Below the pieces are notes generated by a model. The model was not told where the DNA came from and searched no databases. It worked only from the letters and a program-made list of their open reading frames with translations. From positions 828 to 64,827 of the IMG/VR virus record IMGVR_UViG_3300035698_027145: a stretch of DNA of 64,000 nt; one strand, written 5' to 3'. The stretch comes from a virus. Taxonomy: Duplodnaviria; Caudoviricetes. Of this stretch, positions 12,647 to 39,300 are shown in pieces. Made by a program: the position numbers and the translations under genes. Each line of letters opens with the position of its first letter. Position 1 is the first letter of the stretch.

Positions 12647-12715
12647 TATCTAAGAAAAAAGCTCTTTAGACATAAGAATATGATAAGTTTTGTTAGATAA
12701 TTAAAGGATTTATAA

Positions 12716-13003
12716 ATGAAAATCTTAAAAACAGCAAATTATGAAAAGTTAGCTCATCGTGTATCTTTTAAGCATATATGCGATGATTGTAACGAGTTCA
12801 CCTATTTGACAAAAAGAGATATGATGAGCAAATCTGTTCCAAGATGTAACTTTTGTGGATCAACGTGGTTAGAGCCCGTTACGGAACATGCTAAAGGCAA
12901 AATGCAGCAAGGTCACGATGCTTACAAAGAAAACGTAGAGTTAACTCAGGATAAGACAAATTTTCAAAATAAGAGTATGGATAGAGAACTCTCTCATCTT
13001 TAA
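12716..13003 (+). CDS. Zn-ribbon protein with MKILKTANY leader
   Basis: CDDC...CNFCGS; AAGGA SD; leader shared with the 24965-27256 array. Confidence 0.75.
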   Translation: MKILKTANYEKLAHRVSFKHICDDCNEFTYLTKRDMMSKSVPRCNFCGSTWLEPVTEHAKGKMQQGHDAYKENVELTQDKTNFQNKSMDRELSHL

Positions 13004-13015
13004 GGAAATAATATA

Positions 13016-13441: not shown

Positions 13442-13452
13442 AGGAAAGATGC

Positions 13453-13972: not shown

Positions 13973-13993
13973 ATAGGGTGGATTGGAAAATAA

Positions 13994-14359: not shown

Positions 14360-14372
14360 TAGGAGATAAAGT

Positions 14373-14735
14373 ATGAAGTTTTTGTTGAGCGAAATTTATG
14401 GAATGACTAGGAATTTAACTAAATTGACAGATAAAGAATTGCCTATTAAGATTTCTTATCGTCTTTTAAAACTCTTAAAAGGTTGTTCTGAAGAACTCGA
14501 GACTCTTGAAAAAGCTAGAGTTAAATTAGTTGAGAATTATGCCGAAGAGCCAAAAGAAGGTGGAGAAATGCAAGTCTCTGATGAGAACAAGGTAAAGTTT
14601 CAAGAAGAATTTACTGTACTTCTAAACGAAGAGGTAGAGATTGATTTTGTTCCTATTCCAATAGGTGATTTAGGAGACATTAGTTTATCAACTAATGACT
14701 TAGTACCTTTGCAAAAAATAATCAGTGAAAAATAA
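14373..14735 (+). CDS. Conserved phage helical protein (DUF1617-like)
   Basis: KELPIKISYRL...EFTVLLNEEVEIDF pattern seen in phage proteins. Confidence 0.6.
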   Translation: MKFLLSEIYGMTRNLTKLTDKELPIKISYRLLKLLKGCSEELETLEKARVKLVENYAEEPKEGGEMQVSDENKVKFQEEFTVLLNEEVEIDFVPIPIGDLGDISLSTNDLVPLQKIISEK

Positions 14736-14772
14736 ATCAAGGATTTTCTTTATTTTTCTTTAATTTAATATA

Positions 14773-17121: not shown

Positions 17122-17201
17122 AAAAAGGTTTTTTTAGAAAATATTCAAAATAATATAAAATATAGCATAGATTTTAAATAAATAGTAAGGAGAATAAAAC
17201 T

Positions 17202-18014: not shown

Positions 18015-18044
18015 AAGATAACTTTTAATAATGGAGCTAGTGAT

Positions 18045-18773
18045 ATGGATATTGTCCCAGCAGGTAAGACTCGAGTGATGGTTGCACAGAATTTTTCAAA
18101 TCCTTTATCTGAAGGGTTTGGAGGACAAAGTGCTGCCGATGAGAATATGCCAAGCCCTGAAATGTCTCCTGAACAAGGAGCGTTAGAAACAGGTGGAGCT
18201 ATGGAAGAAGACATTAATGAAGAGGCTAGTCCTACTATTAATGATGATGTTAGCATCGAGCCAGGAGAAGATCAGGAAGTCGCTCCTAAAGAAAATGGTA
18301 AAAAGACGCTTACTACTTATGTCTATGAAAAACTTCAGAATTATGGATATCCTGGACGAAGACTGCAAGATTTTAAAGCAGAGTTCGTTAAGGAATCCAT
18401 ATCCCCTGAGGGCGTTAAAGATATTCAAGTAGTGATTCCTGATAAAAAGTATCCTGATGCAAAAGGATATACTGATACTATAGAGAACGAAGAGCTAAAA
18501 CAAATATCGCACGAAGTTAACCAGATGTTTGGATTAAATTTTAACGGTGCGGAACGATCAGATGGGAAGTGGACTATTAAGTTTACTTCTGCTGATTTAT
18601 CAGATCCTGAAGAAGCGGTATCAAATGATAATCTTGATTCGGTTTATGGTAAGCCAGAAAAAAGCCAGTCGGATCAGCAAAACGCGATGAGATCAGCGGC
18701 AGGAACAGGTCAAATGACCAAGTATCAGAAAGATGAACTAGTTAACAAATTAAATAAGATTGGAGATAAATAA
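18045..18773 (+). CDS. Hypothetical head-module protein
   Basis: 242 aa; acidic N half, globular C half. Confidence 0.7.
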   Translation: MDIVPAGKTRVMVAQNFSNPLSEGFGGQSAADENMPSPEMSPEQGALETGGAMEEDINEEASPTINDDVSIEPGEDQEVAPKENGKKTLTTYVYEKLQNYGYPGRRLQDFKAEFVKESISPEGVKDIQVVIPDKKYPDAKGYTDTIENEELKQISHEVNQMFGLNFNGAERSDGKWTIKFTSADLSDPEEAVSNDNLDSVYGKPEKSQSDQQNAMRSAAGTGQMTKYQKDELVNKLNKIGDK

Positions 18774-19444
18774 TGATCCAAAGAATGTCAGATCAACATA
18801 AAATTAACTTTTTGGACAATAAAGAATCTTCTGAAAAAGTTGCAGGGCAAAAAGATGCTCCTAAGAAGACTATGAATCAATTATCTGAAGAACAGAAGGC
18901 TAAAAAGTTATCTAATAAATTTGATTCAAATGCACAGCAAGTTATGACAAGCAAACATATATCATCAGCTAGAACTGGAGATATTACAGATATGGGCGGA
19001 CCTAGCACATTTACTAAGTGTGATAGTGCTAACACTATTTGGGATGCTAACAAGAATGCTAAAGCAAGTGGAACAATGGATAATAAATCTAAGACTATCC
19101 AAGAAAAAGCAAATATAGCTTCTAATAAAAGAGATGCAGAGAATAAGAGAGTAAGCGATTTGGCAGAAACTCTAAAGTCTACATTGTTAAGCAAAGCTTC
19201 AACAGTTACTCCTACTGGCACTTTGAGTGGAACAAACTACAAAGAGTCAGAAAAAAATATGAGCATATTTGACAATAAAGATTTTATGAGAGTTAAAGAT
19301 CAAACTGATGGAGAAAAAGTTTCATCAGATATAAAAGATAAAAAGAGTCAGAAAGATGAGTCTTGGAGAAATGGTGGAAAAGTTGTTTCTTCTAAAGGTA
19401 TTACAAAGAAATTGTTCGATGGATTTTTTACTGGTTCGGAGTAA
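18773..19444 (+). CDS. Hypothetical head-module protein
   Basis: TAATG-coupled, K/S/N-rich, 223 aa. Confidence 0.7.
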   Translation: MIQRMSDQHKINFLDNKESSEKVAGQKDAPKKTMNQLSEEQKAKKLSNKFDSNAQQVMTSKHISSARTGDITDMGGPSTFTKCDSANTIWDANKNAKASGTMDNKSKTIQEKANIASNKRDAENKRVSDLAETLKSTLLSKASTVTPTGTLSGTNYKESEKNMSIFDNKDFMRVKDQTDGEKVSSDIKDKKSQKDESWRNGGKVVSSKGITKKLFDGFFTGSE

Positions 19445-19447
19445 TTA

Positions 19448-20629
19448 ATGGGAAAGCCTTTTAATTTGAAAAAATCATATAATGCAGATCCATTTCAGCA
19501 AATGATGACTGACGTTCCAATGGGATATAATCCTGTGGCATCTCATTATTTGTGGAATAGTGTTTATGCAAATGATCCTGCCATGGATTCTATGGCTGAT
19601 ATGTTTAGAGACATGTCTCCTGAAGATATCCAAATGGAATATGAAAGAATGTCCAATCCAGAAGTAGTAGAAGAGCTTCCCCAAGATGCTGTGCAAATCG
19701 ATGACGCTAAGCAGCAGATGAGTAGCGTTATAGGAGTTAATGCAAGTGTGAAAAAGCCTTTTAATTTGAAAAAAGCTCAAGGAGGATTTGCTCCAGATAT
19801 GATGGAATTGCAAAATGATATGGAGCAGGATTTAGAGCCTAATAGAAAGTTTCAAACGCATTCAGATTTAAATAATATGTTGTTACAATTATCTACTTCT
19901 AAGAATGCTTTTCAAATTGCATGGAATGAGATTATGGCAGAAAATCCTAAAGAATCAGATTCTGCACAATCAGCTTTGAAAAGTTATTTTCAAGGTTTGG
20001 AAACAAAGGGAGACGAGCAGCGTTTAGATGAAGCAGATATTATTTATAAATTAATTTACGGGAATGAGGAAAGTATGACTATTAAAGCCCCATACGAACA
20101 TATAGGTTCAGTTAATGAGATAATTAAGAAGTTAGCTCAAAAAACTGCTAATAAAGATAAGAAAAAAGCTTTTAATCTCACAAAGACAGCACAGCACAAA
20201 ACTATGGATAATGCTATCTTATGGGGTCCAGGGCAAACAAGAATAGATCCTTTCTTGCATCAGCCAGTTTCGGATTGGCATATAGTTGAAAGAAATAAGG
20301 GATTTGGTCTTGTTGTTGATGATGTGTGGAATATTGATTATGAAACTATCTGGCGTGAAAATGTTATGGATAAATATTCACGTCCTTATAAAAACAAAGA
20401 AGGAGATTGGGTTGGTGGATATATTCAAAAGAGATTTGAAGTTGATAAGAATATCCCAGAGACTAATAATATGCAACTAAAGCCAGGTCAGCTAAGAAGA
20501 CCAGTTCTTCCTGAGTACGGCAGCACAGAATCAAGAATGCAAGCGGCTAGATCAGCAGGCGACATTGCAGGTGCTAACGATACTTCAAAACCATTCAATT
20601 GGAAAGAAGCAAGTAAAAAAAAAAGATAG
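19448..20629 (+). CDS. Head-module protein with four FN[L/W]xK motifs; ends at an A10 slippery run
   Basis: KPFNLKKS, KPFNLKKAQ, KAFNLTKTAQ, KPFNWKEAS. Confidence 0.75.
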   Translation: MGKPFNLKKSYNADPFQQMMTDVPMGYNPVASHYLWNSVYANDPAMDSMADMFRDMSPEDIQMEYERMSNPEVVEELPQDAVQIDDAKQQMSSVIGVNASVKKPFNLKKAQGGFAPDMMELQNDMEQDLEPNRKFQTHSDLNNMLLQLSTSKNAFQIAWNEIMAENPKESDSAQSALKSYFQGLETKGDEQRLDEADIIYKLIYGNEESMTIKAPYEHIGSVNEIIKKLAQKTANKDKKKAFNLTKTAQHKTMDNAILWGPGQTRIDPFLHQPVSDWHIVERNKGFGLVVDDVWNIDYETIWRENVMDKYSRPYKNKEGDWVGGYIQKRFEVDKNIPETNNMQLKPGQLRRPVLPEYGSTESRMQAARSAGDIAGANDTSKPFNWKEASKKKR

Positions 20630-20661
20630 CTCAACTTAAGCCTTTAGAAGGGCTAAAACCA

Positions 20662-21093
20662 ATGAAATTTCCTGGAGACTCAGATCCGACTCAGGAAATT
20701 TCTCAATGTCCGTACTGTGAAACTTGTGTCTCTGAAGATGCTATGGTTTGTTCTAATCCTAATTGTGAGTCACAAGGCATACCTATAACTCCTGTCAAAA
20801 AAGGAGAACTTCATGAAAATAAAGTGCATGCTCCAGGTGTTCGCCCAAAAGGATATGGTCCAAAAACGCCTGAATGGGTAACTAAGGGTCGTCCTATAGC
20901 AGCTTCTAAATTAGCGGAGAGAAAAAAAAAGAAAGATCATGACATTGCAGAAGATAGTGATGAAACGATTAAGGACGAGTTCTCAGTAGATGTGAATATG
21001 TGTGTAGACCCATTTGAGAAAAAGAAGAGAAATGCCGATGTAAGGAAAGAAGAAATTATGAGATCTTGTCGTGATCTAGCGATAGATGGATAA
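20662..21093 (+). CDS. Zn-finger protein; may be the -1 frameshift extension of the upstream gene
   Basis: CPYC...CSNPNC; frame is open back through the A10 run at 20615-20624. Confidence 0.65.
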   Translation: MKFPGDSDPTQEISQCPYCETCVSEDAMVCSNPNCESQGIPITPVKKGELHENKVHAPGVRPKGYGPKTPEWVTKGRPIAASKLAERKKKKDHDIAEDSDETIKDEFSVDVNMCVDPFEKKKRNADVRKEEIMRSCRDLAIDG

Positions 21094-21108
21094 TTTAAAG
21101 GATAAAAA

Positions 21109-24100
21109 ATGGCTAAATTTATTATGGCAGACAATACTCCTCAAAATAAGAGGAGAATGATAGCAGCATCGGGAGGCTATTCAGCACCAGATGATTCTAA
21201 AAAAATTCATAAGAGTGGGTTAGCTCACTCTATGACAGTAAGCGTTCCTATAACTAAGAATTCACAATTTGCAGGGTCAGCGGCAGGTGTAGCTATGCCT
21301 CAGCCTATGTTTTTTAGCCCACTTCATACTCCACAGAACTGGCAGATAGCAAGTAGGCGTAGAGAGATCATGCAATGGTCTAGGTTCTACTACATGAATG
21401 AACCTAAAGTAGCAGCAGGTGTGGATTTCTATTCTAACTTCTCTATGAATGGATTTAAACTCGAATGTAAATCTAAAAAGGTTTTGAAATTTTATGAAAG
21501 ATTAGTAGAAAAATTAGATCTTTCAGAAAAATTAAATGCTGTCAGTCACGAATATTTTCTTATTGGTGATGTTTTTCCATTCGCAGAAATAGAATGTCCA
21601 ACTTGCGGAGGCGCAGGAAGAACACAAGACGGTGAGATATGTAATCACCCTGATGGAACGTTCAAAAGTATAAAGCTAATGAATCCTGACTATCTTGAAG
21701 TTAGAGATGCTCCTATTGCGTCATGCCCTGAATACTATTTGGTTCCTGATGAGGAATTAAAAATGGTTGTTCAGAGACAAGAACCTAAAAGTATATATGA
21801 TAAATTGCCACCTAGTCTTATTGCGGCAGTTCAATCAGGAAATCCTATTAGATTATCAGATAGAAGCATTAGTCATTTAAAACATAACGCTAGCGATTAT
21901 GGAACATACGGAACATCTATGCTTCAGAGATTGTTTACAGTCTTGGCATACAAAACAAAGATTATGACAGCTAACTGGATTGTAGCAGAGAGATTAATCC
22001 TTCCTGTTAGAGTTGTAAAGGTTGGTGATAAAGATAGACCAGCGACTGATACTGATTTGACAGATGTTCAAAATCAATTATCAGCAGTTGCTAACGATCC
22101 TAACCTTACCATTGTTACTCACCATGCTTTTGAATATGAATGGTTTGGAGCATCGGGCAAGATTCATAATATTACACAAGAAGTAGAACAGATAGGTAAA
22201 GAGATCTTAGATGGTCTTATGCTTAACCAAGCTATTCTAAATGGAGAGATGGCTGGCTATTGCCTAAGTGAAGATACTCTTACTCTTACTGATTCTGGTT
22301 TTAAACATTATTGGGATATTCATGAAACAAAAGATAAAATTGCTTGTTATAATTCTGACACTAAAAAAATAGAATATCATCTTCCTTATGAGAAAGTAGT
22401 GTATGATTATGAAGGAGAGATGGTCCATTTTAATACTGATAAGATAGATATTTTAGTAACTCCTAATCATAGGATGTGGAGTGCTAAGAGAGGTTCTGAT
22501 AAGTTTGAGATAATAAGAGCAGAAGATGTTCGTTCAAGAGCCAAGTTTATAGGAGCAATAGATGGATATGAGGGAGAATATATCCCGTATGTTGAAATTG
22601 GAGAAAAACAATATAATGTTTATGATTTTTGTAAATTAGTTGGATATTATGTTTCTGAAGGATGGGTCTCAAAAGAAAATAGGAAGAATAGAACTAAGAA
22701 ATATACTACCGTTTCGATTGGTCAGAGTGTTAATGGAAAAGCTAGAGAAGATATAGATGGTTTATTTGACGATATGTTTGATACTCATTACGATAATGAT
22801 AATGAGATACATGTTTATAAGCCTGAACTAGCAGATTATTTAAGGACTAATTTTGGGTCTGGGGCTATTAATAAAAAACTTTCTTCTTTTGTTAAAAATC
22901 TATCGACTGAATGTTTGGAGATAATTTTAGATGCTATGGTAAATGGAGATGGTTGTATCCATAACCATATAGGAGAGAATAGAAAAGTTAGTGGAACATC
23001 ATATTATACCTCAAGCGAACAACTCGCTAATGATTTTGCAGAAATAGCGTTCAAGTGTGGCTATATAACTAAAATAAGAAAAGTATCAAAGAAGAATAAT
23101 AGTAAAAAATATTTCAATAAAACAGGGCATCAGTATAAAACTAATCATCAACAATATGTTGTTTACATTTCAAAGGGATTTAAGGGGAGAACCCCTACTC
23201 TTCATTCTAAATCTGAAAAATATGCAGGAAAAGAAATAACAAGAGTTCCTTATAATGGCAAGATTTATTGCTTTTCTGTTCCTTATGAAAAGTTCGTAAC
23301 TATGAGAAATGGAGTAGTCACTATCCAGGGCAACACCAGTGCACAGGTTGGTATCGAAGTTCTTATTAGAAGGTTGGATAACTGGAGAAATAAGTTAAAA
23401 TCTTGGGTAGAAAAGAATATATTTGAACCTGTTGCAATGATGCAGGGATTTATAGATGAAGAAGAGTCTCAGTATATTAATGAGACAGTTTATTTATATC
23501 CAAAGCTTACATGGAATGATTTGCAGCTTAGAGATAAGACTAATAGAATACAAACATTAATGCAGATGTATGATAAAGGAATGGTATCTGCACAAACTGT
23601 TCTTGAAGAGATGGATCTTGATTATGATTCAGAAGTTGAGAAGATTAGAGAAGAGCAGTTAATGGCTCAAGCTAATGGTCAAGTAGCTGGCATGGATGGT
23701 GGTGGAGATGCTATGGGTGGCGCTCCAATGGGAGGTGGCCCAATGGGTGGAGATATGGGAGGTATGCCAGGCATGGAGGGTGCTCCAGGCGCTGAGATGG
23801 GCGGTATGCCAGGCGGAGATATGGGAGGAGGTATGGGAGGTGCTCCAATGGGAGGCGCTCCAGGAGGTATGGGGGCAGCAGCTTCAGGAGAAATGCCTAT
23901 TATAGGTAAGAGAGGTTCTAAGAATAAACAACAAGAAGAGGAAGAGCAAGCACCACCTCCTCAGATGATTAAGCTGACAAAGTTAGAACAGAAAATGTTT
24001 AGAACTCTTTCTGCAATGGATACTCCTCAGGATTTATTTGCACAATATCAAGTTAAAGTGCCAGGAGAAGCAAGACCTTATGCAATAGATTTTGCTTATC

Positions 24101-24474
24101 CTAAGATCGGAGTAGGTATAGAAGTTGACGGTGCGATTTGGCATGAAAGAGAAGATTTTAAACAAAGAGATTTACAAAGAGATCAAAAATTAGCAAATGT
24201 TGGGTGGAGAGTGCTAAGATTTAATGAAGATTCGGTTAATGAAAATATTGATGCCGTTAGAGATACAATTATTAAACATATAGCAGATGCAAGCAAAAGT
24301 AAAAAAGCAGCAGAAAGTAAGGAGCTGATTAAAACAGCTTCAACAGATGAAGCATGGATGAACCCCTTGTATGAATATTGTCTTTCCAAAGGAAAGATAG
24401 GATGCAGTAGAGAATCTCTTCCATACGGACAAATTCTTTATATAGGGAATATTAATAATGGAGAAACTACATAA
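21109..24474 (+). CDS. Portal protein with intein and C-terminal DUF559/Vsr-like nuclease domain
   Basis: EPKVAAGVDFYSNF, HEYFLIGDVF, ISHLKH...YGTYGTSML portal-like blocks between terminase and protease; G/M/P linker; IDFAYP...IEVDG..WH...RD..L...GWRVLRF. Confidence 0.88.
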   Translation: MAKFIMADNTPQNKRRMIAASGGYSAPDDSKKIHKSGLAHSMTVSVPITKNSQFAGSAAGVAMPQPMFFSPLHTPQNWQIASRRREIMQWSRFYYMNEPKVAAGVDFYSNFSMNGFKLECKSKKVLKFYERLVEKLDLSEKLNAVSHEYFLIGDVFPFAEIECPTCGGAGRTQDGEICNHPDGTFKSIKLMNPDYLEVRDAPIASCPEYYLVPDEELKMVVQRQEPKSIYDKLPPSLIAAVQSGNPIRLSDRSISHLKHNASDYGTYGTSMLQRLFTVLAYKTKIMTANWIVAERLILPVRVVKVGDKDRPATDTDLTDVQNQLSAVANDPNLTIVTHHAFEYEWFGASGKIHNITQEVEQIGKEILDGLMLNQAILNGEMAGYCLSEDTLTLTDSGFKHYWDIHETKDKIACYNSDTKKIEYHLPYEKVVYDYEGEMVHFNTDKIDILVTPNHRMWSAKRGSDKFEIIRAEDVRSRAKFIGAIDGYEGEYIPYVEIGEKQYNVYDFCKLVGYYVSEGWVSKENRKNRTKKYTTVSIGQSVNGKAREDIDGLFDDMFDTHYDNDNEIHVYKPELADYLRTNFGSGAINKKLSSFVKNLSTECLEIILDAMVNGDGCIHNHIGENRKVSGTSYYTSSEQLANDFAEIAFKCGYITKIRKVSKKNNSKKYFNKTGHQYKTNHQQYVVYISKGFKGRTPTLHSKSEKYAGKEITRVPYNGKIYCFSVPYEKFVTMRNGVVTIQGNTSAQVGIEVLIRRLDNWRNKLKSWVEKNIFEPVAMMQGFIDEEESQYINETVYLYPKLTWNDLQLRDKTNRIQTLMQMYDKGMVSAQTVLEEMDLDYDSEVEKIREEQLMAQANGQVAGMDGGGDAMGGAPMGGGPMGGDMGGMPGMEGAPGAEMGGMPGGDMGGGMGGAPMGGAPGGMGAAASGEMPIIGKRGSKNKQQEEEEQAPPPQMIKLTKLEQKMFRTLSAMDTPQDLFAQYQVKVPGEARPYAIDFAYPKIGVGIEVDGAIWHEREDFKQRDLQRDQKLANVGWRVLRFNEDSVNENIDAVRDTIIKHIADASKSKKAAESKELIKTASTDEAWMNPLYEYCLSKGKIGCSRESLPYGQILYIGNINNGETT
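22261..23334 (+). mobile_element. Intein (358 aa) with LAGLIDADG endonuclease in portal
   Basis: Starts Y|CLSEDT, block B VTPNHRM, LVGYYVSEG and LDAMVNGDG, ends IQGN|T. Confidence 0.93.
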
Positions 24475-24919
24475 GTTTTCTGGCAGACAGAGGATAAAAG
24501 ACAGAGGGATAGAATGGAAAGAGTTTTATCATGAAAGATCTCAAAGATTAAAAAAGAGATTTGATAAACAGATAGGTCCATTAGCTTATATAAGATGGGA
24601 AGGTCATGACTATACGACTGACTCAGATTATTTTATTATTATGGGTCCATCTTTAACCAAAGAGGGTAAGAAGAAATTCTTTGCAGGCATTAAAAAATTG
24701 CCTGACGATCCTAAAGCTAAGATTTATGCTCCTGCTGGTGAGTACTTCACTAGTTCAGTGGCAGCACTTAGCCATGCCTCAGACAAATGGGCTATACCAT
24801 TTCCTAAGGGTGCGCCCAACTACACAGTAGATCAACATTTAGCTCCAATAGAGATTCCCCGTCACGTTAAGGGTAGTAGTAATAAAATTATTATCCAAGC
24901 AAAAAAACCTTTACTTTAA
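24458..24919 (+). CDS. Hypothetical protein
   Basis: 153 aa basic ORF overlapping the portal stop. Confidence 0.7.
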   Translation: MEKLHKFSGRQRIKDRGIEWKEFYHERSQRLKKRFDKQIGPLAYIRWEGHDYTTDSDYFIIMGPSLTKEGKKKFFAGIKKLPDDPKAKIYAPAGEYFTSSVAALSHASDKWAIPFPKGAPNYTVDQHLAPIEIPRHVKGSSNKIIIQAKKPLL

Positions 24920-24964
24920 AATATAGAGGATTTTTTTTATTAATTTAGAAATGAAAGAATAACT

Positions 24965-25159
24965 ATGAAGATTATAAAAACAAAAAATTATAAAGAGTCA
25001 CAGATGGGTATGGGTGATGGGGAGCAGACTAACGATTCTAAAGTTAGAGAGCTTATTGCCCAAGGGATGGATGTAGGAATGGCTGTTAGAGCTGTTTATC
25101 CTGATTTACAGCCTATTCAAGTCGAAGAGTTAAAAAGTTATTATTCACAAGGAGTATAG
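24965..25159 (+). CDS. Small protein with MKIIKTKNY leader
   Basis: MKIIKTKNYKESQ; promoter-family copy at 24927. Confidence 0.7.
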   Translation: MKIIKTKNYKESQMGMGDGEQTNDSKVRELIAQGMDVGMAVRAVYPDLQPIQVEELKSYYSQGV

Positions 25160-25164
25160 ATATA

Positions 25165-25332
25165 ATGCTTAAATGCGGTCAAAAAGATAATGAAAAATAT
25201 ACGTTTGGTGTAAGAAAAGATCAAATCGAAGAACCTAAGAAGAAAGAAGATAGTAAGATTTGTTGCAGTTCATGCGGAACTTGTCTTACTAAGAGATCAA
25301 GTTTCTGTCCTTCTTGTGGGGAAAAAATATAA
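25165..25332 (+). CDS. Small Zn-ribbon protein (55 aa)
   Basis: AAGGAG SD; MLKCGQK...CSSCGTCL....FCPSCGEKI*; not in ORF track. Confidence 0.7.
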   Translation: MLKCGQKDNEKYTFGVRKDQIEEPKKKEDSKICCSSCGTCLTKRSSFCPSCGEKI

Positions 25333-25785
25333 ATGAAAATTATAAAGACTAAAAGATATGCAAACACTTTCGAAGGATATGATCCATATAAAGTTGATTT
25401 TGGAAAAGAAAGAGAGAAAGCAAAAGGCATGGAAACAGAGTCTTTATTTGGAGCTTTGAAAGATGCTATTGAAGCATCTCAGACTAGTGTTAATGAAGGA
25501 AAGTATTATGATCAGGCATCTGTCTATAGAAGAGAACTAGAGAACAGAGGGATATCTATTATACAGCAAAACGAAAAGATACAAAAAATGCCAAGTCTGC
25601 ATACTGATCCTAATGATTATCTGAAATGTAATATTTGTGGTCAAACAAAACATTGGGAAGAGTTTAGTCAAAATAATGAAATGTGTAATGAATGTATTGA
25701 GAGCGAAGGTGACGAGCAAAGAGCAGGTAAGGCATTTATGGATTCAGGAGAATATCAGAATTATCCAGAACTTGGAGATAGATAA
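25333..25785 (+). CDS. Protein with MKIIKTKRYA leader and Zn finger
   Basis: Leader plus CNICG...CNEC. Confidence 0.75.
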   Translation: MKIIKTKRYANTFEGYDPYKVDFGKEREKAKGMETESLFGALKDAIEASQTSVNEGKYYDQASVYRRELENRGISIIQQNEKIQKMPSLHTDPNDYLKCNICGQTKHWEEFSQNNEMCNECIESEGDEQRAGKAFMDSGEYQNYPELGDR

Positions 25786-26093
25786 TGAAAATTATAAGAA
25801 CAGCAAATTATGAGAAGATGGCTTCCCAAGATTATATTTATCTTGTTCAAGATCCGTCAGATGGTTCTGTTAACGTGTATAACTATAAGGAAAATAATGA
25901 TAGCGGGTCAGTCCGCTTTGGTCTTATGGATAATATGTTTATAGATTCTGTAAATTCTATAGAAGAGGCAAAAATAAAATATCCAAATGCAGAAGTAGGA
26001 ACTCATAAATTGAAAGCTGATCCTATGTCTTCATTTGCTCCTAGTGATTTTGATCCAGGCTATGCAGGCGAACGTTGGGACGATGATTATTAA
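25785..26093 (+). CDS. Protein with MKIIRTANY leader
   Basis: MKIIRTANYEKMASQ; ends FDPGYAGERWDDDY. Confidence 0.75.
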   Translation: MKIIRTANYEKMASQDYIYLVQDPSDGSVNVYNYKENNDSGSVRFGLMDNMFIDSVNSIEEAKIKYPNAEVGTHKLKADPMSSFAPSDFDPGYAGERWDDDY

Positions 26094-26118
26094 TAGATAT
26101 ATCTAATAAGGAATTATT

Positions 26119-26520
26119 ATGAAAATTATAAGAACAGCAAATTATGATGAGAACTGGTCTCAAAGAGCAAAAATGGATTTAGCTAATGACCTGTTAGACT
26201 GGCATGGTGGTCAGAGTTCAGGACTATATAGTGTTGGGTCTAGTTGGCTTTCAGGGAATATGGAAGTTCCTGAGGAGAATATACAATTAGCTCTGTCAGA
26301 GTTAGAAGATCTTATTAATAGAAAAGTCAATTATCCTGAAACTATGGGAGATAGAGAAATTAGTCAGTTGAAAGAAATAAAACAAAAACTGGCTCAATTA
26401 ACTACTAATGAGATAGCACATACAGATAGTGATATGAAATATGATGAGGGAACTTATCGTGCAGATTATGGATTCCCAGATACTCCTATGGGGTTGGAAG
26501 ATGATAATCCTATATATTAA
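26119..26520 (+). CDS. Protein with MKIIRTANY leader
   Basis: Leader; body has DWHGGQSSGLYSVGSS. Confidence 0.75.
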   Translation: MKIIRTANYDENWSQRAKMDLANDLLDWHGGQSSGLYSVGSSWLSGNMEVPEENIQLALSELEDLINRKVNYPETMGDREISQLKEIKQKLAQLTTNEIAHTDSDMKYDEGTYRADYGFPDTPMGLEDDNPIY

Positions 26521-26532
26521 TAAGGAAATATA

Positions 26533-26958
26533 ATGAAAATTCTTAAAACAGCAAATTATAAAAAAAGAATAAAAACAGCGGCTGTGAATATGCCTGCTCC
26601 TTGGAATGAGGATCTTGGAACTAATGATAAAGTACCAGCAAGCTGGGAAATATGCGATCAATGCCGTGGAACGGGAGGAAGCAGCGCTCATCTAGGGGAA
26701 ATTAGTGATGAGGCTAGGGCAGAGATGATGATGGAAGATGATCAGCAGGGAGGAACAGAGTGGAGTTCTTATATGGGTGGAGCAATGGATAGACCATGTG
26801 AATCTTGTGATTCAACAGGAAAAGTTCTTGAAATGAATTGGGATTGGATTGAACAAAATGCTACACCTGAACAAATACAAGTTCTAGAAGACCAGAACGA
26901 ATATCAGCAAGAAGAAGCATGGGAACAAAAGATGAGAGAACAGGGTAGAGAATTTTAA
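26533..26958 (+). CDS. Protein with MKILKTANY leader and DnaJ-like CxxCxGxG Zn motif
   Basis: MKILKTANYKKRIKTAA; CDQCRGTG...CESCDSTG. Confidence 0.75.
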   Translation: MKILKTANYKKRIKTAAVNMPAPWNEDLGTNDKVPASWEICDQCRGTGGSSAHLGEISDEARAEMMMEDDQQGGTEWSSYMGGAMDRPCESCDSTGKVLEMNWDWIEQNATPEQIQVLEDQNEYQQEEAWEQKMREQGREF

Positions 26959-26970
26959 TAAGGAATTATT

Positions 26971-27256
26971 ATGAAAATTATAAGAACAGCAAATTATAAA
27001 AAAAGAATGAAGAAGGCAGAACAAGGTTGTAGAGAGTGCAGCGGAAATGATATTATTTGAAAACAATAAAAGTTCTAATAATATGTCTGATATAGAGATA
27101 GAAAATAGAGCCAAAAGGTGGCTTAATTTTCTCTACGAAGGCACTGAATTGGAAGAATCTTCTCAAAAAATAGTTATTGGAAAAATTATAGAAAAAATAA
27201 AACAGTTGAAAGAAATAGAATTTAGAAATGAGTCTGCTAATAAGGAAATAATATAA
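26971..27256 (+). pseudogene. Frameshifted MKIIRTANY-leader gene
   Basis: Leader frame stops at 27060 (29 aa); the other frame continues QNKVVESAAEMILF... to 27256; adding CA near 27017 restores KKAQNKVV. Confidence 0.55.
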
Positions 27257-30200
27257 TGGCAATGTATAAAAGAGCAACATTTTCACATAAGTGTAAAGTA
27301 ACTGCTTTGAATAAACCAAAAGGAGAAGGTTGGGATATCTATGATCTTCCTAATCAAATTAAAACTGCCTCTACTACTGTAGAAGGAGAAGATTTGAATG
27401 GTTTTGATCTTAAACAAGCAACTACTGATCACCCAGATCATCTTTACATTAAAGTTTTTGCGATTAAAAAAGATGAACCTAATGATAATGGAGACGCTTT
27501 CTGCGAAGCAGAACTTAAAACAGCAGCTCCTTCATTCGTTGGTGTTCCACTCTTTACTAATCACCAAAATGATGATGTAGAAAAAGCAAGAGGAGAATGC
27601 GTTCACTCTTGGTACGATCAAGAAGAAGGTGGTATCTATATTATAGGAAGAGTTGATAAGATTGCTTATCCTCGTCTTGCAAGAGGTATAGAAGAAGGAT
27701 ATATAACAGGCTGTTTTCCCCCAGATGCTCCAGTTCTCATGTCCGATGGAACAGAAAAAAGTATTTGTGACATTGAAGACGGTGATGAGGTTATCTCTGG
27801 AAAGGGAAATATTAAGAAAGTTTTAGGAATAAGGCAAAGAGGATATAACTATCCTATTGTTTCTATTCAATTAGAAGGAAATAAACAGCCATTAGTTTGC
27901 ACTTCTCATCATAATCTTATGGTTTATAGATTACCAGAGCTGTGTGCATGTGGGTGTGAAGAAGAATTAGTTCTCAAAAAAGATAAGAGAATAACGTCAA
28001 AAACTTTTAATAGAAAATTTAGAACAGGTCATAACTTAAGGGGAGAGTCTGAAGAATTTAACCATGAGTATATTCAAAAGATAAAAGCTTGCGAACTAGA
28101 AGATGGTGATTTTTTAGTTGAGCCAAAATTTGTTGATGAGAGTTGCGATGATTATGTTACAGAAAATGAGGCTTTTTTAATTGGTTTGTTTTTGGCTGAA
28201 GGAAGTTTTGAAAAAAGAAAAGGAATTAGACATTCTGCCATATTTAATTTTGCTCATACAGAAAGAGATACTTTAGCATTTCAATGTGAAGAAAAATTAA
28301 AAAAAGCATTTGCTACTCATAGAAATGGCCCTACAACTAATTATTATCCTGGAGCATCTCAAACAAGAGTTAATTTATATGGGAAAGATATCGCTGATTG
28401 GTTTTATGATAGATGTGGAGAATATAGCGATGGGAAGATTTTAAATGAAAAATTAATGAAGTTAGGTAAAGAAAAAACTTCTTCGTTATTGGCAGGTTTT
28501 ATTGAGGGAGATGGGTATAAAGTTAAAGAAAAATATTATGGATTTGGAATAGTTTCTTCTAATTTAACAAGCCAGCTTAGATTATTGTTTGAAAAAATAG
28601 GGGTAAGAACGAATTATAAGGTGATTACAGAAGATAATGGGAGATGGGGATATAAGCCTGTTCATGAGGTTACTTTTGGCAAGACCACTGTTCCCGATTT
28701 ATTTTGGGATAGATTAATATACAAAAAAGCAGAAAAGGCAAAGGCGAAAGCAGCGTCATGGCACAGTTTGGAAGATTATACTCTTAGAAGAGTGAAGGAA
28801 ATTAAAGAAATAAATTATGATGGAATAGTTTATGACATAGAGGTTGAGGATGATCACACTTATTGCGTGAATCATATAGCAGTGTCTAACACATCAATGG
28901 GATGCTCTGTAGAAAATTCTATTTGCTCTGTATGTCATAACAATGCACATACAGCAGATGATTATTGTTCTCACGTAGCAAATAGAAAGAACAGAAAGTA
29001 TACAGGAGATCTCAAGTGTTCTTATCATAATAGTCCAACAGATAAACAGGATAAATGTCCTGTTTGTCATAGCACATCAGATGATGCTAAAACTCTTAAA
29101 CACTCAGAGCAGGCAATCTTTGAACACAACTATGGTCTTAAGTTTATTGAGAATAGTTTTGTAGTTAATCCTGCATGTCATGATTGTGGAGTTAGATGTA
29201 TCCTACATGCCCCTACAGTAGAGAGCAAAGTAGCATCTTTCCAGAATACAGTTTCTAACCTCGTTAAAGAGGCTCACCTTAAAGAGGGAGACTCAGCACT
29301 TGAAGGGTTTATTACTAGACTTGGTGGAATGAATGAACTTCAGTCTATTAAGAATAGCATGGACGAACTTGAGAAGGTGACTAAGAGCATGTTGAAACAG
29401 AAGGAAAACATCTCAATGGAATACGTTAGCCAAATTGTTAAGGCTATGTCGGATATTCAGGAGTTCTATGATGAGTTGATAGAGATGGGATATGGGGCTT
29501 TGCCTTCTCCTCCTGTGATGGGAGCAGATGATAGTCCTCCATTAGTAGCAGAACAACCTCAAGCAGCTATGCCACCAGAGCAGATGGCAGCTCAACAAGC
29601 ACCTCCTCAGCCAGGTGGAAGTCAAACTTCTGATCTGGGAGGATTAGGAAATATCACTTTGCCTAAAAATTCTTCAAGAAAAATAGAGGAATTTTCTAAA
29701 ATAAGTGGAAATCTAATAAATAAAGTAACCTCTCTGGAAGAGAGTCTACGTGAATTGAATAAAAATATTAATTCCAAATTAAATATAGGAGCAGAAATGG
29801 CTACTGACAAGAAAAATACAAAAGTGGCGGCTAGCACTGATAATCTTGAACTGATTACCGAAAAACAGCTTATGAAGGAAGAAGAGTCTCTTCATCCAAG
29901 AACAGGCGAAGTTTATGAAGGTATCACAGAGAGTAAAGAGCAGATTGGTGGATCAGAGCGAAGCAACGATACCACATCAAGTAGCCCACAAATTCGTGGT
30001 GGAACTTATGAAACTACTACAGAAGATCAACTAAAGACTAAAAGTGCTTTAGGTGAATCTGTTATTCACTTTAATGAATATCCAGATGTCATTACTGAGA
30101 AACAGTGGGACGATTTTAGTAGAGATGTTGCTGGTGAACTTCCAGATGACTATACTGAATCTATTACTCAGGCTCAGATTAGAGAACTTCTTAGCAATCA

Positions 30201-34755: not shown

Positions 34756-35628
34756 ATGGCTTTTGATAAAAATGGTTTAACTGACCAAGAAAAAGAAATG
34801 GTTATCGCTCAGGCTCTAGAGACTGACGAAGGTAGAACAGCCCTTGCACAGGCAATGGTAGAACCTATTAGAAGGGCACTTGAGTATCAAGCTGTCGGTA
34901 GAAAACTTCTAATGGTTGACGAACTTCCACAGGGCGCTCTAGCTCGTTACGAACGTGACGTTGCAGCGATCGCTTGGGTTGTATCTCGTAGAGGTGCTGT
35001 GCCTGACCAGATTCAAGAAGGAGAAGAAGTGTTGGTTCCTACATTCGAAATTGCAGCGAACCCAACAGTTAGACTTAGTGAGATCAAAGCTCGTAGGTTC
35101 TACATCGTAGACAGAGCACAGATCAAGGCTAAAGAAGCAATCCAGAAGGAAGAAGATAGTAACATATTTAACGCATTGCTTACTGCTGTTCCAGCAGCTC
35201 AGCAAATAACAAACTATGGAACTCTTACGATTCCTGCGTTGAATGAAGCGTTTAAGCAGATCGAACAGCATGACCTTGTAGCAGCTAAGATCGTTACACA
35301 TGCTTTCCAGTATGCTTCAATCAGAACATTCGGTAAGGATTTCTACGATGAGGCAACTCAGAGAGAAATTATCACAACTGGTCTTTACGGCCATCTGTGG
35401 ACTGCTGATATTCACGTTTCAAGCAGAATGGATAGTGCAACTGTTCTTGTAGTTGCTAGTCCTGAAACCGTTGGAGCATTCCCAATCAGACAGGACATTA
35501 CAGTTCTGCCTGCTGACGATCCAAAGAAATTACGCCTTGGCTGGGTCATATACGAGGAAGTTGGAATCGTTGTTATAAATGATTATGCAATTGCAAAAAT
35601 CACTATGACAGACGCGACTGTATCTTAA
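34756..35628 (+). CDS. Major capsid protein (HK97 fold)
   Basis: GRTALAQAMVEPIRRAL.YQAVGRKLLMVDELPQG, VPTFEIAANP, LGWVIYEEVG; biased codons; strong SD; terminator follows. Confidence 0.92.
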   Translation: MAFDKNGLTDQEKEMVIAQALETDEGRTALAQAMVEPIRRALEYQAVGRKLLMVDELPQGALARYERDVAAIAWVVSRRGAVPDQIQEGEEVLVPTFEIAANPTVRLSEIKARRFYIVDRAQIKAKEAIQKEEDSNIFNALLTAVPAAQQITNYGTLTIPALNEAFKQIEQHDLVAAKIVTHAFQYASIRTFGKDFYDEATQREIITTGLYGHLWTADIHVSSRMDSATVLVVASPETVGAFPIRQDITVLPADDPKKLRLGWVIYEEVGIVVINDYAIAKITMTDATVS

Positions 35629-35649
35629 TCGTAGTTGTTAGAAAAAACA

Positions 35650-35679
35650 AGGGTAGAACTTCGGTTCTGCCCTTTTTTT
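35650..35679 (+). terminator. Intrinsic terminator (UUCG loop)
   Basis: AGGGTAGAAC-TTCG-GTTCTGCCCT then T run. Confidence 0.92.
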
Positions 35680-36555: not shown

Positions 36556-37224
36556 ATGAATTGGTATAAGAAATCACAACGATATAAAAAGAGAGAATGG
36601 TCTAAGGATGAGATTCAAACTATTAAAGAATTAATAGAAGAAGGGCATTCATTCGAAGAAATAGGAAGTCTTTTTGGTATGAGCAATTATACTATATTGA
36701 GATTAAATAAAGAGCATGGACTAGTAGACCTTGAAGCAAGAAAAATAGAAAAAGACAAACGGATAATTGGTTTTTATTTGTTGCCTCCAGATGGAGAAGG
36801 GTTAAGCACAAAACAAATCACAAAACAATACGGTATACCTATAACAAGTATTAAGAGGGCATTAAAAAGATTTGGCTTATCTGATCAGTATAGAGATAGG
36901 GAGTGGTATGATTCTCCAGAAAATAAAAAGAGATTATCAGAAATTGAAACAGAGAAGGCTTCTGATCCCGCTTATAGAGAAAGGATGTCTGATATGCAGA
37001 AGCAAAGATATATAGATGATCCTGATTTGCATAGACAGAGATCTGAGCAGGGTAAAAAAGTTCATCAAGATAATCCTCAATTAGCTATTGATAGTAAAGA
37101 AAGAATGGAAGAGAGATGGAGTCAATATCCAGGAGGTTTTGAGGAGTGGGTAAGCACATTTCCTCCTGAAAGACAACAACCGATAAGGGATGCTGTGAAT
37201 GCAAAATATAGGACTCGGGCTTAA
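36556..37224 (+). CDS. HTH protein with MNWYK leader
   Basis: REWSKDEI..IKEL..EG.SF.EIG.LFG HTH; YLLPPDGEGLS; NUMOD3-like helices. Confidence 0.75.
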   Translation: MNWYKKSQRYKKREWSKDEIQTIKELIEEGHSFEEIGSLFGMSNYTILRLNKEHGLVDLEARKIEKDKRIIGFYLLPPDGEGLSTKQITKQYGIPITSIKRALKRFGLSDQYRDREWYDSPENKKRLSEIETEKASDPAYRERMSDMQKQRYIDDPDLHRQRSEQGKKVHQDNPQLAIDSKERMEERWSQYPGGFEEWVSTFPPERQQPIRDAVNAKYRTRA

Positions 37225-37226
37225 TT

Positions 37227-37823
37227 ATGAATTGGTATAATAGACAATTAAAGATATCTGGTGGTCCAAGAAGAGAATGGTCTGCTGAAGAGTTGGAAGA
37301 AATAAAAAAATTAATACAAAAAGGAAAATCGTATAGATATGTAGGGGAGATGTTTAAAGTTAGCCCTAGGTCGATAGAAGGGTTAAATAAGAAATATCAA
37401 TGGTTAAATAAAAAGGAAGAATTAATAAAAAAATATAGGCGGATAGCGAGTCTTTACCTATTGCCGCCAGAGGGCAAAGGGATATCAGGATATCAATTGA
37501 GAAAAGAATATGGACTAAGTAATAGCGATATCGTTTCAGCTTTAAAGTTTTTAAATAAATCAGAATTTTATAGACTTCCTAATGACAAGTATGTAATGGA
37601 GCAGCGTTCAATATCTGCAAAAGAATGGTGGGAAGATCATGGTAGACTAGAGGGATATCTCACTTCTATTTCAAAAGAAGAGGCAATATCTTTTTTGAAT
37701 AATCTGGTATCAAATATCAATAAAACCAACAATAGAAAAGCTTTTAACACATATAACAAATACATGCAGATCATCAACAATCACACCTATCCTGATGAAG
37801 TTCAGCAGGGAGTAACTGTTTAA
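37227..37823 (+). CDS. HTH protein with MNWYN leader, paralog
   Basis: Same HTH, YLLPPEGKGIS; C-terminal KYMQIINNHTYPDEVQQ shared with the next gene. Confidence 0.75.
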   Translation: MNWYNRQLKISGGPRREWSAEELEEIKKLIQKGKSYRYVGEMFKVSPRSIEGLNKKYQWLNKKEELIKKYRRIASLYLLPPEGKGISGYQLRKEYGLSNSDIVSALKFLNKSEFYRLPNDKYVMEQRSISAKEWWEDHGRLEGYLTSISKEEAISFLNNLVSNINKTNNRKAFNTYNKYMQIINNHTYPDEVQQGVTV

Positions 37824-37824
37824 T

Positions 37825-39300
37825 ATGAATTGGTATAAGAGACAATTAAAGATAGCAATGCCTAGAAGTTCTGCAAAAAGAGGATGGACAACAGAAGAAT
37901 TAGAGAAAGTGAAGAAATTAGTAGAAGAAGGAATGAGTTTTGAAAGGATAGCAAAGCTGTTTGGAGCATCTGAGAACTCTATACGCCAATTGAATGCAAA
38001 GTATAAATGGGTAGATTTAGAGCTAAGAAGGAAAGAAAAAGAGTTAAAGTGGAAAGAAGAAGATGAGAAGATAGTTAATCTTTATCTATTACCTCCTCGA
38101 GGCGAGGGAGTGTCTGCCAGAGAGATAAGAAGGAGACATGGATTTGGTCTTAAAAGAGTGCAAAAGGCATTAGAAAGATTAGGGCTATCAGAATATTACA
38201 GAAATATATCAGATACTAATAAACGAACATATGACGAAGAAACAATCAAAAAAATAGATTATTTATATAAACAACCTCCAGAGGGATTGGGTTTGCCAAT
38301 GCATGAAGTGGCTAATCGTATTGGGTCGGCTAAAGAATCTTTAAAGAGATTTTTTAATGAAACTGGAAGGAACATAAGGACAGTAGAAGATCAGTTAAAA
38401 TTATTTAATCCTCAAAAATCTAGTAAGTGGGAAGAAGTTGAAGCCAATAAAGAAGAAATTCAAAATATGTTAAATGAAGGATATTCTAAAAAGCAAATAG
38501 CAGAGTTGTTTGAAGTTGGTCCTCAATTAATGATAAAAATGTTGAATAGATTAAATGTTTTTAGAGATTTTAATAAGGTCAAACAAAAAGCTCAAGAGAT
38601 GATGGATCAAGGGATGCTCCTAACTGAGATTTCAAGGAAGTTAAAAATTGATCCTAGAAAAATTAAAAAAATGTTTGATCTCGAGACTAAATCTAGGAAT
38701 TATAGCCCTGGTGTTCCTATATCTCCAGAAGAAGGAGATGAAATAATAAGATTACATATTAAAGAAGAATTAAGACCTACTGAAATATCTAAAAAATTAA
38801 ATAGACCTATAGCTAGTATTGTTGATTTTTTAACACGCAAAGGCGTTTATAAGAGATTAAGGGGAGATTGGGTTAGATTCGATCCTACAGAAGAACAGAT
38901 TAAACAGATAGATGATTGGTATGCTTTGCCTCCGAAGGGAGAAGGTAGATCTCTTATATGGATAGGTTATAAGTTCGGATTATCTGGCAGTCAAATGGGG
39001 TATTGGTTTCATAAAACAGGCAGACCTGTTAGAAGTTTCGAAGAGCAGGTTGCTACCGATGCGACTAAAGAAGATATAAGTTTAGCTAAAATTATAGACT
39101 GGGAAGAAAAAGGGGGATTAAAAGGTTTATTAACAGATTTTTATCCTACAAGACAGCAATCTATAAATTATTTAAACAGTTATGTTCATAGGTTATTACA
39201 GCAGGGAGCTAGTAGAAACAGAGCTTTTGGAACAAGAACTAAGTATATGCAAATCATCAACGATCACACATATCCTGATGAAGTTCAACAACCTGTTTAG
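37825..39300 (+). CDS. Multi-HTH protein with MNWYK leader
   Basis: About seven HTH-like units; Y..PP.G.G repeats x3. Confidence 0.75.
   Translation: MNWYKRQLKIAMPRSSAKRGWTTEELEKVKKLVEEGMSFERIAKLFGASENSIRQLNAKYKWVDLELRRKEKELKWKEEDEKIVNLYLLPPRGEGVSAREIRRRHGFGLKRVQKALERLGLSEYYRNISDTNKRTYDEETIKKIDYLYKQPPEGLGLPMHEVANRIGSAKESLKRFFNETGRNIRTVEDQLKLFNPQKSSKWEEVEANKEEIQNMLNEGYSKKQIAELFEVGPQLMIKMLNRLNVFRDFNKVKQKAQEMMDQGMLLTEISRKLKIDPRKIKKMFDLETKSRNYSPGVPISPEEGDEIIRLHIKEELRPTEISKKLNRPIASIVDFLTRKGVYKRLRGDWVRFDPTEEQIKQIDDWYALPPKGEGRSLIWIGYKFGLSGSQMGYWFHKTGRPVRSFEEQVATDATKEDISLAKIIDWEEKGGLKGLLTDFYPTRQQSINYLNSYVHRLLQQGASRNRAFGTRTKYMQIINDHTYPDEVQQPV

Follow-up and report, generated by a model that had tools for sequence, protein, structure and literature searches.

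We analysed a 64,000-nucleotide stretch of viral DNA (the window; IMG/VR record IMGVR_UViG_3300035698_027145) that carries a set of small genes whose products begin with a common leader peptide. The window is nearly the whole of a 64.8-kb viral contig and has a G+C content of 34.6%. Bacillus phage G is a cultivated megaphage with a genome of 498 kb, and the source of the window is a giant uncultured phage of its kinship, whose head module the window contains. The major capsid protein (MCP) is 55% identical to gp27 of phage G, and the module also encodes a terminase, a portal protein, a decoration-like protein and a protease fused to a putative scaffold (Table 1).

An array of leader-bearing genes

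All ATG codons on both strands of the window were scanned for open reading frames (ORFs) whose products begin with the pattern MKI[IL][KR]T[AK][NR]Y. Exactly seven were recovered, every one on the + strand. Six lie in a 2.3-kb gap between a 153-residue gene on the portal side and the protease gene, and the seventh is located at 12716. These are the same ORFs, at the same coordinates, that an earlier note on this DNA had described as an array of six genes and a distant one. The six starts are real, but the make-up of the array needs correction: ORF 26971 is only a 29-residue stub, and two further ORFs in the gap, 25165 and 27047, lack the leader.

Table 1. Coordinates of the leader genes, the head genes and related features of the window
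Feature	Position	Strand	Evidence or remark
Large terminase	7509-9437	+	PHROG 2, E 8e-24
Distant leader gene, 95 residues, MKILKTANYEKLAH..., CxxC...CxxC body	12716..13003	+	ATG scan
Portal protein, 1121 residues	21109..24474	+	PHROG 16240, E 1e-40; Pfam DUF559, LAGLIDADG_3
Basic 153-residue gene bounding the variable gap	24458..24919	+	tblastn match in related loci covering the position, including all 25 protease-anchored loci
Leader gene 1, 64 residues, MKIIKTKNYKESQ...	24965..25159	+	ATG scan; body pI 4.3
Leaderless zinc-ribbon gene, 55 residues	25165..25332	+	Pfam Zn_ribbon_3, E 5e-5, under cut-off
Leader gene 2, 150 residues, MKIIKTKRYANTF..., best-conserved body	25333..25785	+	73 homologues
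Leader gene 3, 102 residues, MKIIRTANYEKMASQ...	25785..26093	+	ATG scan; two homologues, P0234 and P0235
Identical 42-nucleotide stretch, copy 1 (stop codons, ribosome-binding site, first 9 codons)	26104..26145	+	Exact identity
Leader gene 4, 133 residues, MKIIRTANYDENW...	26119..26520	+	Modelled four-helix bundle, disordered tail ending TPMGLEDDNPIY
Leader gene 5, 141 residues, MKILKTANYKKRIKTAA..., two CxxCxGxG motifs	26533..26958	+	ATG scan; net charge -14
Identical 42-nucleotide stretch, copy 2	26956..26997	+	Exact identity
Leader stub, 29 residues, MKIIRTANYKKRMKKAEQGCRECSGNDII then stop	26971..27060	+	ATG scan
Leaderless ORF, 69 residues, different frame, doubtful coding status	27047..27256	+	ORF list
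Protease-intein-scaffold polyprotein (scaffold role predicted), 2269 residues	27256..34065	+	PHROG 18299 head maturation protease, E 2.5e-5; Intein_splicing
Major capsid protein	34756..35628	+	PHROG 2522, E 5e-66
Three paralogous helix-turn-helix (HTH) proteins starting MNWY[KN] (36556, 37227, 37825)	36556..39300	+	Second leader type
Two further MNWYKRS... genes with unrelated bodies (41368, 41923)	41368..42195	+	Second leader type

Five of the six full-length leader genes encode acidic bodies, with a pI of 4.1-4.7 and net charges between -4 and -19, and the leader itself is basic. The body of 12716 has a pI of 7.2, and a homologue of it (lp44) is located elsewhere in the related record G002. 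Searches of the array genes with Pfam and PHROG gave no match over the cut-offs; the weak hints were Zn_ribbon_3, Stc1, DnaJ_CXXCXGXG (for 26533, E 0.003) and phrog_6230 (C-terminus of 25785). For 25333, the ESM Atlas returned unnamed viral clusters only, with scores of at most 0.85. The AlphaFold2 model of 26119 has a predicted local distance difference test (pLDDT) value of 67, with an average of 48 over residues 1-10, and Foldseek comparison of this model with PDB found only a generic helical bundle (best E 0.18), which is uninformative. No nucleotide match to positions 24400-27300 was found by blastn among 50,697 phage records.

Homology among related loci is uneven. The 25165 zinc-ribbon gene is kept in close relatives (tblastn matches in 17 loci) and 26533 has a homologue of 51% identity in one locus (L015), whereas neither 24965 (tblastn) nor 27047 has a homologue among the loci fetched. 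The stub 26971 is identical at 15 of 24 residues to the start of a 52-residue leader protein of locus L002 and stops ahead of the second CxxC of that protein; it therefore looks like, and probably is, a truncated copy. The 153-residue gene at the portal side is basic (pI 9.8) and lacks the MKII leader here, and its relatives begin MIK[LSTI]A[AG]K or M..KFNLK..K.A.

The leader peptide and its DNA

The pattern [ILV][KR]TA[SN] occurs nine times in the 71 + strand ORFs of the window, compared with an expectation of 0.15, and none of 500 shuffles reached nine. When the leader proteins were compared by all-vs-all BLASTP, alignment was confined to the first 9-16 residues except in two weak pairs, both of which include the leader (12716 and 26119, 26% identity over 95 residues; 24965 and 25333, 37% over 64). 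Apart from these pairs, the bodies are as different from one another as the earlier note had claimed.

M1 and K2 are found in every one of 27 aligned N-termini from the window and its relatives, Y9 is present in at least 90% of them, and the sequences diverge past residue 11. In a wider set, 38 of 50 leaders have Tyr at position 9 and 43 have an aromatic residue there, even though this position was absent from the search pattern. Position 10 is Glu in five of the 50, and no Glu is conserved in the leader. A second K.A site lies within residues 9-24 of 22 of the 50 leader proteins, compared with 3/50, 4/48 and 3/44 in later 16-residue stretches, and the leader is therefore often bipartite. The second K-x-[A/S] site proposed in the earlier note is thus upheld statistically across relatives. 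Within the window it is strict K-x-A in 12716, 25785, 26533 and 26971, RYA in 25333 and KES in 24965, but missing from 26119.

Synonymous differences between the leaders of the window are few (AAA/AAG, ATT/ATC and ACA/ACT), and three leaders are identical across all 27 nucleotides. Codon variety, from which the earlier note argued for selection on the protein, is clear only across the 50 leaders of the wider set, where Ile is encoded by ATT, ATA or ATC, Thr by ACA, ACT, ACC or ACG, Ala by GCA, GCG or GCC and Tyr by TAT or TAC; positions 3, 4, 6 and 7 vary synonymously.

The DNA identity noted before 26119 and 26971 is exact over 42 nucleotides and extends through the leader codons, with different flanking bases on both sides. 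Its first 15 nucleotides, TAATAAGGAATTATT, comprise stop codons and a ribosome-binding site, and a similar string is located upstream of 26533 and of the protease gene (27237-27254). The stub and the identity fit the suggestion that leader DNA serves as a recombination point, but the upstream half of the identity is no more than a shared ribosome-binding site. From these sequences we infer that leader DNA might act as a recombination joint.

Hypervariability of the locus among relatives

Searches of IMG/VR anchored on the MCP found 114 relatives. We kept 80 of these, and several are on contigs of 460-548 kb. A set of 25 loci, with several near-identical pairs among them, was anchored on the protease N-terminus. 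The 153-residue gene follows the portal gene in all 25, whereas the contents of the gap beyond it change: one to five leader ORFs are found in nine loci, leaderless genes in four, and a gap of at most 39 nucleotides in the remaining 12. The six leader ORFs of the window are at the high end of this range. The gap of locus L094 holds five, beginning MKLIKSASY, MKLIKNASG, MKIIKSARY, MKLIKSAGY and MKTIKSAGY. Leader arrays also occur 3' of the capsid gene in relatives, with four genes each in L028 and L016.

A loose pattern retrieved 53 distinct leader proteins of at least 40 residues from the window and the fetched loci, three of which were judged spurious. Single-linkage clustering of their bodies (residue 21 to the end, E <=0.001) gave 32 families, or 29 without the spurious three. 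The comparison thus bears out the expectation of a hypervariable gap in which the leader is constant and the bodies change.

The distant leader gene lies at a second site of this kind. Positions 12647-13015 of the window hold the single 95-residue leader gene; between the same conserved neighbours, L002 (2306-3159) carries a 232-residue HNH-like gene and a different 52-residue leader gene. This is cassette replacement at a fixed site.

One homologue of the 25333 body, P0022, which lies on a contig of 547,943 bp (L008/L085), is attributed by one source to a metagenome-assembled genome of an Asgard archaeon. Because this contig carries all of the phage-G-like head genes, the label is probably a binning artefact.

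Exchange of leaders on homologous bodies

The proposal of a portable leader that is joined to unrelated bodies is borne out by the approximately 29 body families, and also by homologous bodies on which the leader is swapped or missing. We aligned the 25333 protein with 28 of its 73 homologues. The N-termini of these 29 rows are of the MK type in 23 (MKIIK[TS]KKYANTF and variants) and of the MNWYK type in four (forms MNWYKQADF, MNWYKKSQY and MNWYKKADF); one has no leader, and in another the leader is internal, past a different leader-bearing module. The 26119 body has nine homologues, eight with the leader and one without. One of them (P0228) carries an extra module of approximately 85 residues between its KKIAQ and QKMAS sites, and another contains an internal MRILKTEKFAMS. 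Both homologues of 25785 are leaderless and have a common C-terminal PSDFD..Y.GERWDDDY.

MNWYK is a second leader type. An unbiased census of N-terminal pentamers covered 2121 distinct ORFs from the loci; after the starts of orthologous decoration proteins, the commonest pentamers were MKIIK (18) and MNWYK (17). Most of the MNWY[KN] genes of the window go on with K-x-[AS]. In relatives, MNWYK heads approximately 30 diverse proteins, and in the window a related sequence, MPNWFKKTAR, heads the gene at 10320-10778.

Several short acidic tails at the C-terminus (TPMGLEDDNP; YPELG; DFDPGYAGERWDDDY / DYDPYAGTGW) are each found on more than one unrelated body, and within a family some members have them and others lack them. 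TPMGLEDDNP, for example, is shared by 26119 and proteins of the 25333 family, and tails of these kinds were noted for the window genes 25333 and 25785 and for P0018, P0056, P0072, P0229, P0061 and P0063. To judge by this distribution, the tails may behave like a second portable label.

The K-x-A motif in other head proteins

The core of the leader recurs within the proteins of the head module. Among the 71 + strand ORFs, KTA occurs 18 times compared with 4.4 expected (0/500 shuffles), and all 18 occurrences are in ORFs starting at 10320-27256. The related motif K.A[SQ] occurs 22 times in ORFs starting at 9505-27256, compared with 5.6 expected (0/300 shuffles). Outside the head module, the other 11,932 residues of the window contain three where 3.9 are expected. 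The control motifs A.K[SQ], E.A[SQ] and K.G[SQ] show no enrichment, and the MCP has no K.A[SQ] site.

Residue 36 of the protease (NQIKTAS) and the portal tail (ELIKTAS) each mark one such site. Others lie at both termini of, and within, the protein encoded at 19448 (KPFNLKKS, KPFNLKKAQ, FNLTKTAQ and PFNWKEAS), and the polyprotein has ten. MKIIKTANYEKMASQ and NQIKTASTT are candidate substrate peptides of the protease. In the portal protein, a LAGLIDADG intein and a Gly/Met/Pro-rich linker are followed by a DUF559/REase_MTES_1575 nuclease-like domain (residues 979-1058) and then by ELIKTAS, with KTAS at residue 1075. The nuclease-like domain would thus hang on the inner end of the portal.

Across 13 aligned protease domains, K36 and A38 never vary, and 12 of the 13 have S39. 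These residues fall in a segment modelled as disordered (residues 1-43, pLDDT <50) immediately N-terminal to the catalytic domain. Conservation was also followed at the 14 K.A[SQAGN] sites of the window's polyprotein in an alignment of 19 polyproteins (17 unique). At 11 of the 14 sites, at least 13 of the 17 sequences retain K/R together with A, and all 17 do so at sites 36, 1084, 1303 and 1590. The middle residue can be T, L, A, I, F, Q, Y, N, V, K or E, and the site inside the intein is kept in just one of the 17. A pair of fixed residues that flank a free one, repeated at many positions in low-complexity sequence, is characteristic of a linear motif that is recognised, not of a fold.

The same motif is present in phage G, where gp19 (the protease) contains VKIAG, VKTAA, EKVAS and LKIAS, and K.A[SAGN] is also found in gp14 (the portal), gp4, gp7, gp11 and gp13. 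Several small ORFs of its head region have basic-hydrophobic N-termini, such as MKRLISKTAARY in gp13. Virion proteomics of phage G (passages of PMC12484599) reports the detection of gp19, of the portal and of the capsid protein; the detection status of the small ORFs gp5, 9, 10, 13, 17 and 20 is not listed in its text passages or supplements.

A further repeated motif was observed in two proteins of the module. The 393-residue protein at 19448-20629 starts MGKPFNLKK and contains four K[PA]FN[LW][KT]K copies, including one at each terminus. The 271-residue protein at 9505-10320 starts MKKTFNLKKMAAS. Homologues in distant relatives start MPKFNLSKFAQK and end GPFNLKKK, and the motif is reminiscent of the 80alpha leader of the Prp/L27 type.

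A predicted protease-scaffold protein

The 2269-residue ORF carries the protease at its N-terminus, and its homologues are 1800-2400 residues long. The remainder of the polyprotein would be the scaffold and would be cut, to judge from its sequence; the protein is thus the presumed reader of the tag and would also be its main substrate. The protease family is large: at E <=0.001 it comprises 3025 cluster representatives, the majority with lengths of 1500-2700 residues. His103, His117 and Ser154 are invariant in the 13 protease homologues. An intein with a LAGLIDADG domain (approximately residues 153-545) splits the protease at the conserved G(T/S)SMG serine motif; it is lacking in relatives of 1835-1939 residues, and insertions occur at the same place in L088, L090, L091 and L108. 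A profile of the protease gave no match at E <=1 to PDB sequences, gp21 of phage T4 included. When a model of the domain was searched with Foldseek, the first nine rows and most later rows were herpesvirus proteases, although these matches are weak (E 0.01-0.1, TM 0.2-0.3).

A candidate tag for loading the prohead

On balance, the leader is probably a tag that loads proteins into the prohead and is then trimmed, in the manner of the capsid targeting sequence (CTS) of phage T4, with the phage's own assemblin/gp21-fold protease as its reader. The leader genes would be co-transcribed with the head-assembly genes. From the portal to the capsid genes there is a single strong terminator-like site, 3' of the capsid gene (35649-35674); promoter-like sites were uninformative (52 seen, 47.8 expected). 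The leader core, a hydrophobic pair plus K-x-A, would be a short linear motif recognised by the maturation protease; K-x-A also stands in the propeptide of the protease, at more than ten conserved places in the putative scaffold and in the portal tail. Offered on a free N-terminus that is predicted to be disordered (26119 model), the tag would bring small proteins to the protease-scaffold core during prohead formation. The protease would then cut at K-x-A and free the body within the head. The cut is most likely C-terminal of Ala, because the release and maturational sites of pseudorabies virus are YLQA-T and VQA-S in the relevant passages of PMC4498786. On this reading, the stretch from the portal-side gene to the protease gene is a hot spot at which tagged cassettes are gained, lost, duplicated and truncated. 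What the sequences show is the shared leader, the motif statistics with their conservation, the variability of the locus and the swapping of leaders; recognition by the protease, the place of the cut, packaging, delivery and any function of the bodies later in infection are inferred.

T4 provides the closest model. Its CTS proteins are IPI, IPII, IPIII and Alt, from which the prohead protease gp21 removes the CTS. As described in passages of PMC9026906 and PMC3012670, the CTS is a 10-residue N-terminal sequence that targets the internal proteins to the scaffold core and carries a gp21 site, gp21 has such a site near its own N-terminus, and the internal-protein genes vary between relatives. The window resembles this arrangement in having a short N-terminal peptide (approximately 9-11 residues) on otherwise unrelated proteins, and in having the genes beside head genes and variable between relatives. 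At the sequence level, the peptide also holds a motif that marks the scaffold and the N-terminus of the protease. Unlike T4, the phage has a small HK97-fold capsid protein of the phage-G type, a protease fused to a scaffold of approximately 2000 residues, and at least two interchangeable leaders (MKIIK... and MNWYK...). The leader system would thus work like the T4 CTS system without being a member of it.

Several findings weigh against this interpretation. Some of them are points at which the earlier analogy to T4 internal proteins breaks down, sound as it is for the shared tag, the location among head genes and the variability. The site is K-x-A-[S/Q/N] here and L/I-x-E in T4, and the bodies are acidic, whereas T4 internal proteins are basic (PMC9026906, in the passages concerned) and DNA-bound. 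In addition, K replaces A at position 7 in the leaders of 24965 and 25333, and the first K-x-A is therefore not universal among leaders. Y9 is specific to the leader and missing at the internal K-x-A sites, so the leader must be more than a cleavage site; moreover, the retention of Y9 and the lack of any need to cut free N-termini loose both argue for a function of the tag beyond that of marking a bond to be cut. The array bodies matched no anti-defence or other family or fold in Pfam, PHROG, the ESM Atlas (25333) or Foldseek (26119), and to call them effectors is therefore a guess. The strict leader DNA pattern gave 0, 3, 1, 0 and 0 matches in five large related genomes, so the leader set is small in most relatives. 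The same counts led us to reject the idea that, in its strict form, the leader stands at the start of dozens of genes in each genome of the clade.

The protease fold also weakens the case. The AlphaFold2 model is poor (pLDDT 58). An all-vs-all structural search placed the protease of varicella-zoster virus at the top (Z 7.1; 107 residues, root-mean-square deviation (rmsd) 3.5), together with T4 gp21 (Z 6.0; 128 residues, rmsd 4.5), in a search where the best chance Z is typically 7-8. Because these scores are within the chance range, an assemblin/gp21 fold is likely but no firmer than that.

Other systems share parts of the arrangement. Herpesvirus assemblin (UL26) is an N-terminal serine protease fused in frame to a scaffold, with short repeated sites of Ala followed by Ser or Thr; the layout of the phage polyprotein gene and its conserved K-x-A-S sites resemble this, and herpesvirus proteases and T4 gp21 are the best, if weak, fold matches of the phage protease model. 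However, Lys is needed here at the third position before the presumed cut, and we know of no family of small tagged cargo proteins in herpesviruses. Propeptides of phiKZ-like phages are longer than this leader, have no single shared leader and are cut after Glu. One giant phage of this type, SPN3US, has propeptide-bearing ejection and inner-body proteins, and resembles the present case in that many proteins internal to its head are processed by a gp21-type protease at a short motif, according to PMC7411985 and PMC10052503.

Alternative explanations

A rival account that we regard as unlikely, yet deserving of real weight, is that the tagged proteins are transient accessories of the prohead core or scaffold, which are recruited, then degraded or released, and are gone when DNA enters, so that no cargo is delivered. 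The acidity of the bodies counts for this account and against ours, since the scaffold polyprotein (pI 4.7) and the decoration protein are acidic too and expelled scaffolds are alike in this respect. The position of the leader genes between the portal and protease-scaffold genes also fits, as does the herpesvirus model, in which the scaffold is cut and then expelled (passages of PMC4498786). However, essential assembly factors are unlikely to range from zero to five genes in close relatives, or to be missing at 12 of 25 loci, and 29 unrelated body families are an ill fit to one structural job. It is considerably less probable that the leader genes form one old paralogous family whose N-terminus is held by a generic constraint such as folding or oligomerisation, with no address function. 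Tandem genes with leader identity at the DNA level do suggest duplication, and the two weak body similarities include the leader. Against this, the bodies differ in size and fold (zinc ribbons, a helical bundle, DnaJ-type CxxCxGxG), MNWYK replaces the leader on the same 25333 body, the leader is missing from the 25785 homologues, and the core motif recurs within head proteins that are not homologous.

We give slightly less credence again to the view that conservation serves the DNA or RNA, through translation initiation, A/T-rich first codons, high late expression or a short homology for cassette shuffling, and that the peptide has no role. The 42-nucleotide identity, which spans stop codons and a ribosome-binding site, the similar string upstream of three genes and the protease gene, and the three leaders identical over 27 nucleotides would all be expected if this were so. 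However, the leader residues are kept with several codons each across 50 leaders, Y9 is predominantly Tyr despite lying outside the selecting pattern, and the same peptide motif is found deep within long ORFs. The last account, that a host Prp-type protease cuts the tag instead of the phage protease, appears very improbable. Passages of PMC9405229 give the L27 motif as MLxx(D/N)LQ(F/L)F'A(S/H)KK and describe Prp as trimming L27 together with the capsid and scaffold proteins of Staphylococcus phage 80alpha; the MGKPFNLKK start of the 19448 protein and the MPKFNLSKFAQK of relatives resemble this motif and the 80alpha scaffold sequence KLKFNLQFF'ADQS. In both systems a short N-terminal leader is common to head proteins, in 80alpha with a cut before Ala, and the FNLKK/FNLSKFAQ variant of the phage clade looks similar. 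In 80alpha, however, a host cysteine protease reads the leader, which is present on two structural proteins and on no variable set of cargo. MKIIKTANY misfits the motif, having no NLQ or FF. The Prp family PF04327 was found in none of five phage records, namely the window and four relatives with a completeness of at least 98%, and the controls were positive. The more than ten conserved internal scaffold sites and the invariant protease site instead fit a phage maturation protease.

An extension of the tag reading, which we offer as speculation and consider doubtful, is a combinatorial address code. Interchangeable K-x-A leaders (MKIIKTA-Y, MNWYK and KFNLKK), to which portable C-terminal acidic tags (TPMGLEDDNP, YPELG and DFDP.Y.GERWDDDY) may add a second label, would in megaphages of the phage G lineage specify a fast-changing set of proteins, including the HTH proteins behind the capsid gene, that is loaded into the head and delivered with the DNA. 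The ribosome-binding site and leader DNA would serve as the recombination joint.

Other features of the window

A free-standing LAGLIDADG homing endonuclease gene (35774-36538) lies directly past the terminator of the capsid gene and, with the two inteins, brings the LAGLIDADG elements of the head module to three. Elsewhere, four adjacent small genes at 54161-55644 (70-112 residues) share the C-terminal heptapeptide R[FS][ED]ILDL, and at least two of them are alike in the N-terminal region.

Implications for giant phages

The idea of a head-loading tag is familiar from T4, and what is new here is the K-x-A code, the proposed herpesvirus-like reader and the interchangeable leaders. Full-text literature searches for the leader strings found no description of MKIIK- or MNWYK-type leaders, literature searches on phage G were equally negative, and the passages of the phage G multi-omics paper (PMC12484599) do not mention them. 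If the proposal is correct, a large and widespread group of giant phages owns a version of the T4 capsid-loading system, with a different code (K-x-A) and with a herpesvirus-like protease-scaffold fusion as the reader. The leader would then provide a sequence rule for predicting proteins of megaphages that are internal to the virion and possibly injected, and foreign proteins could be directed into very large capsids by means of a short, transferable tag. The tag idea is directly testable, since K-x-A is found in the head proteins of phage G, the only relative in culture.

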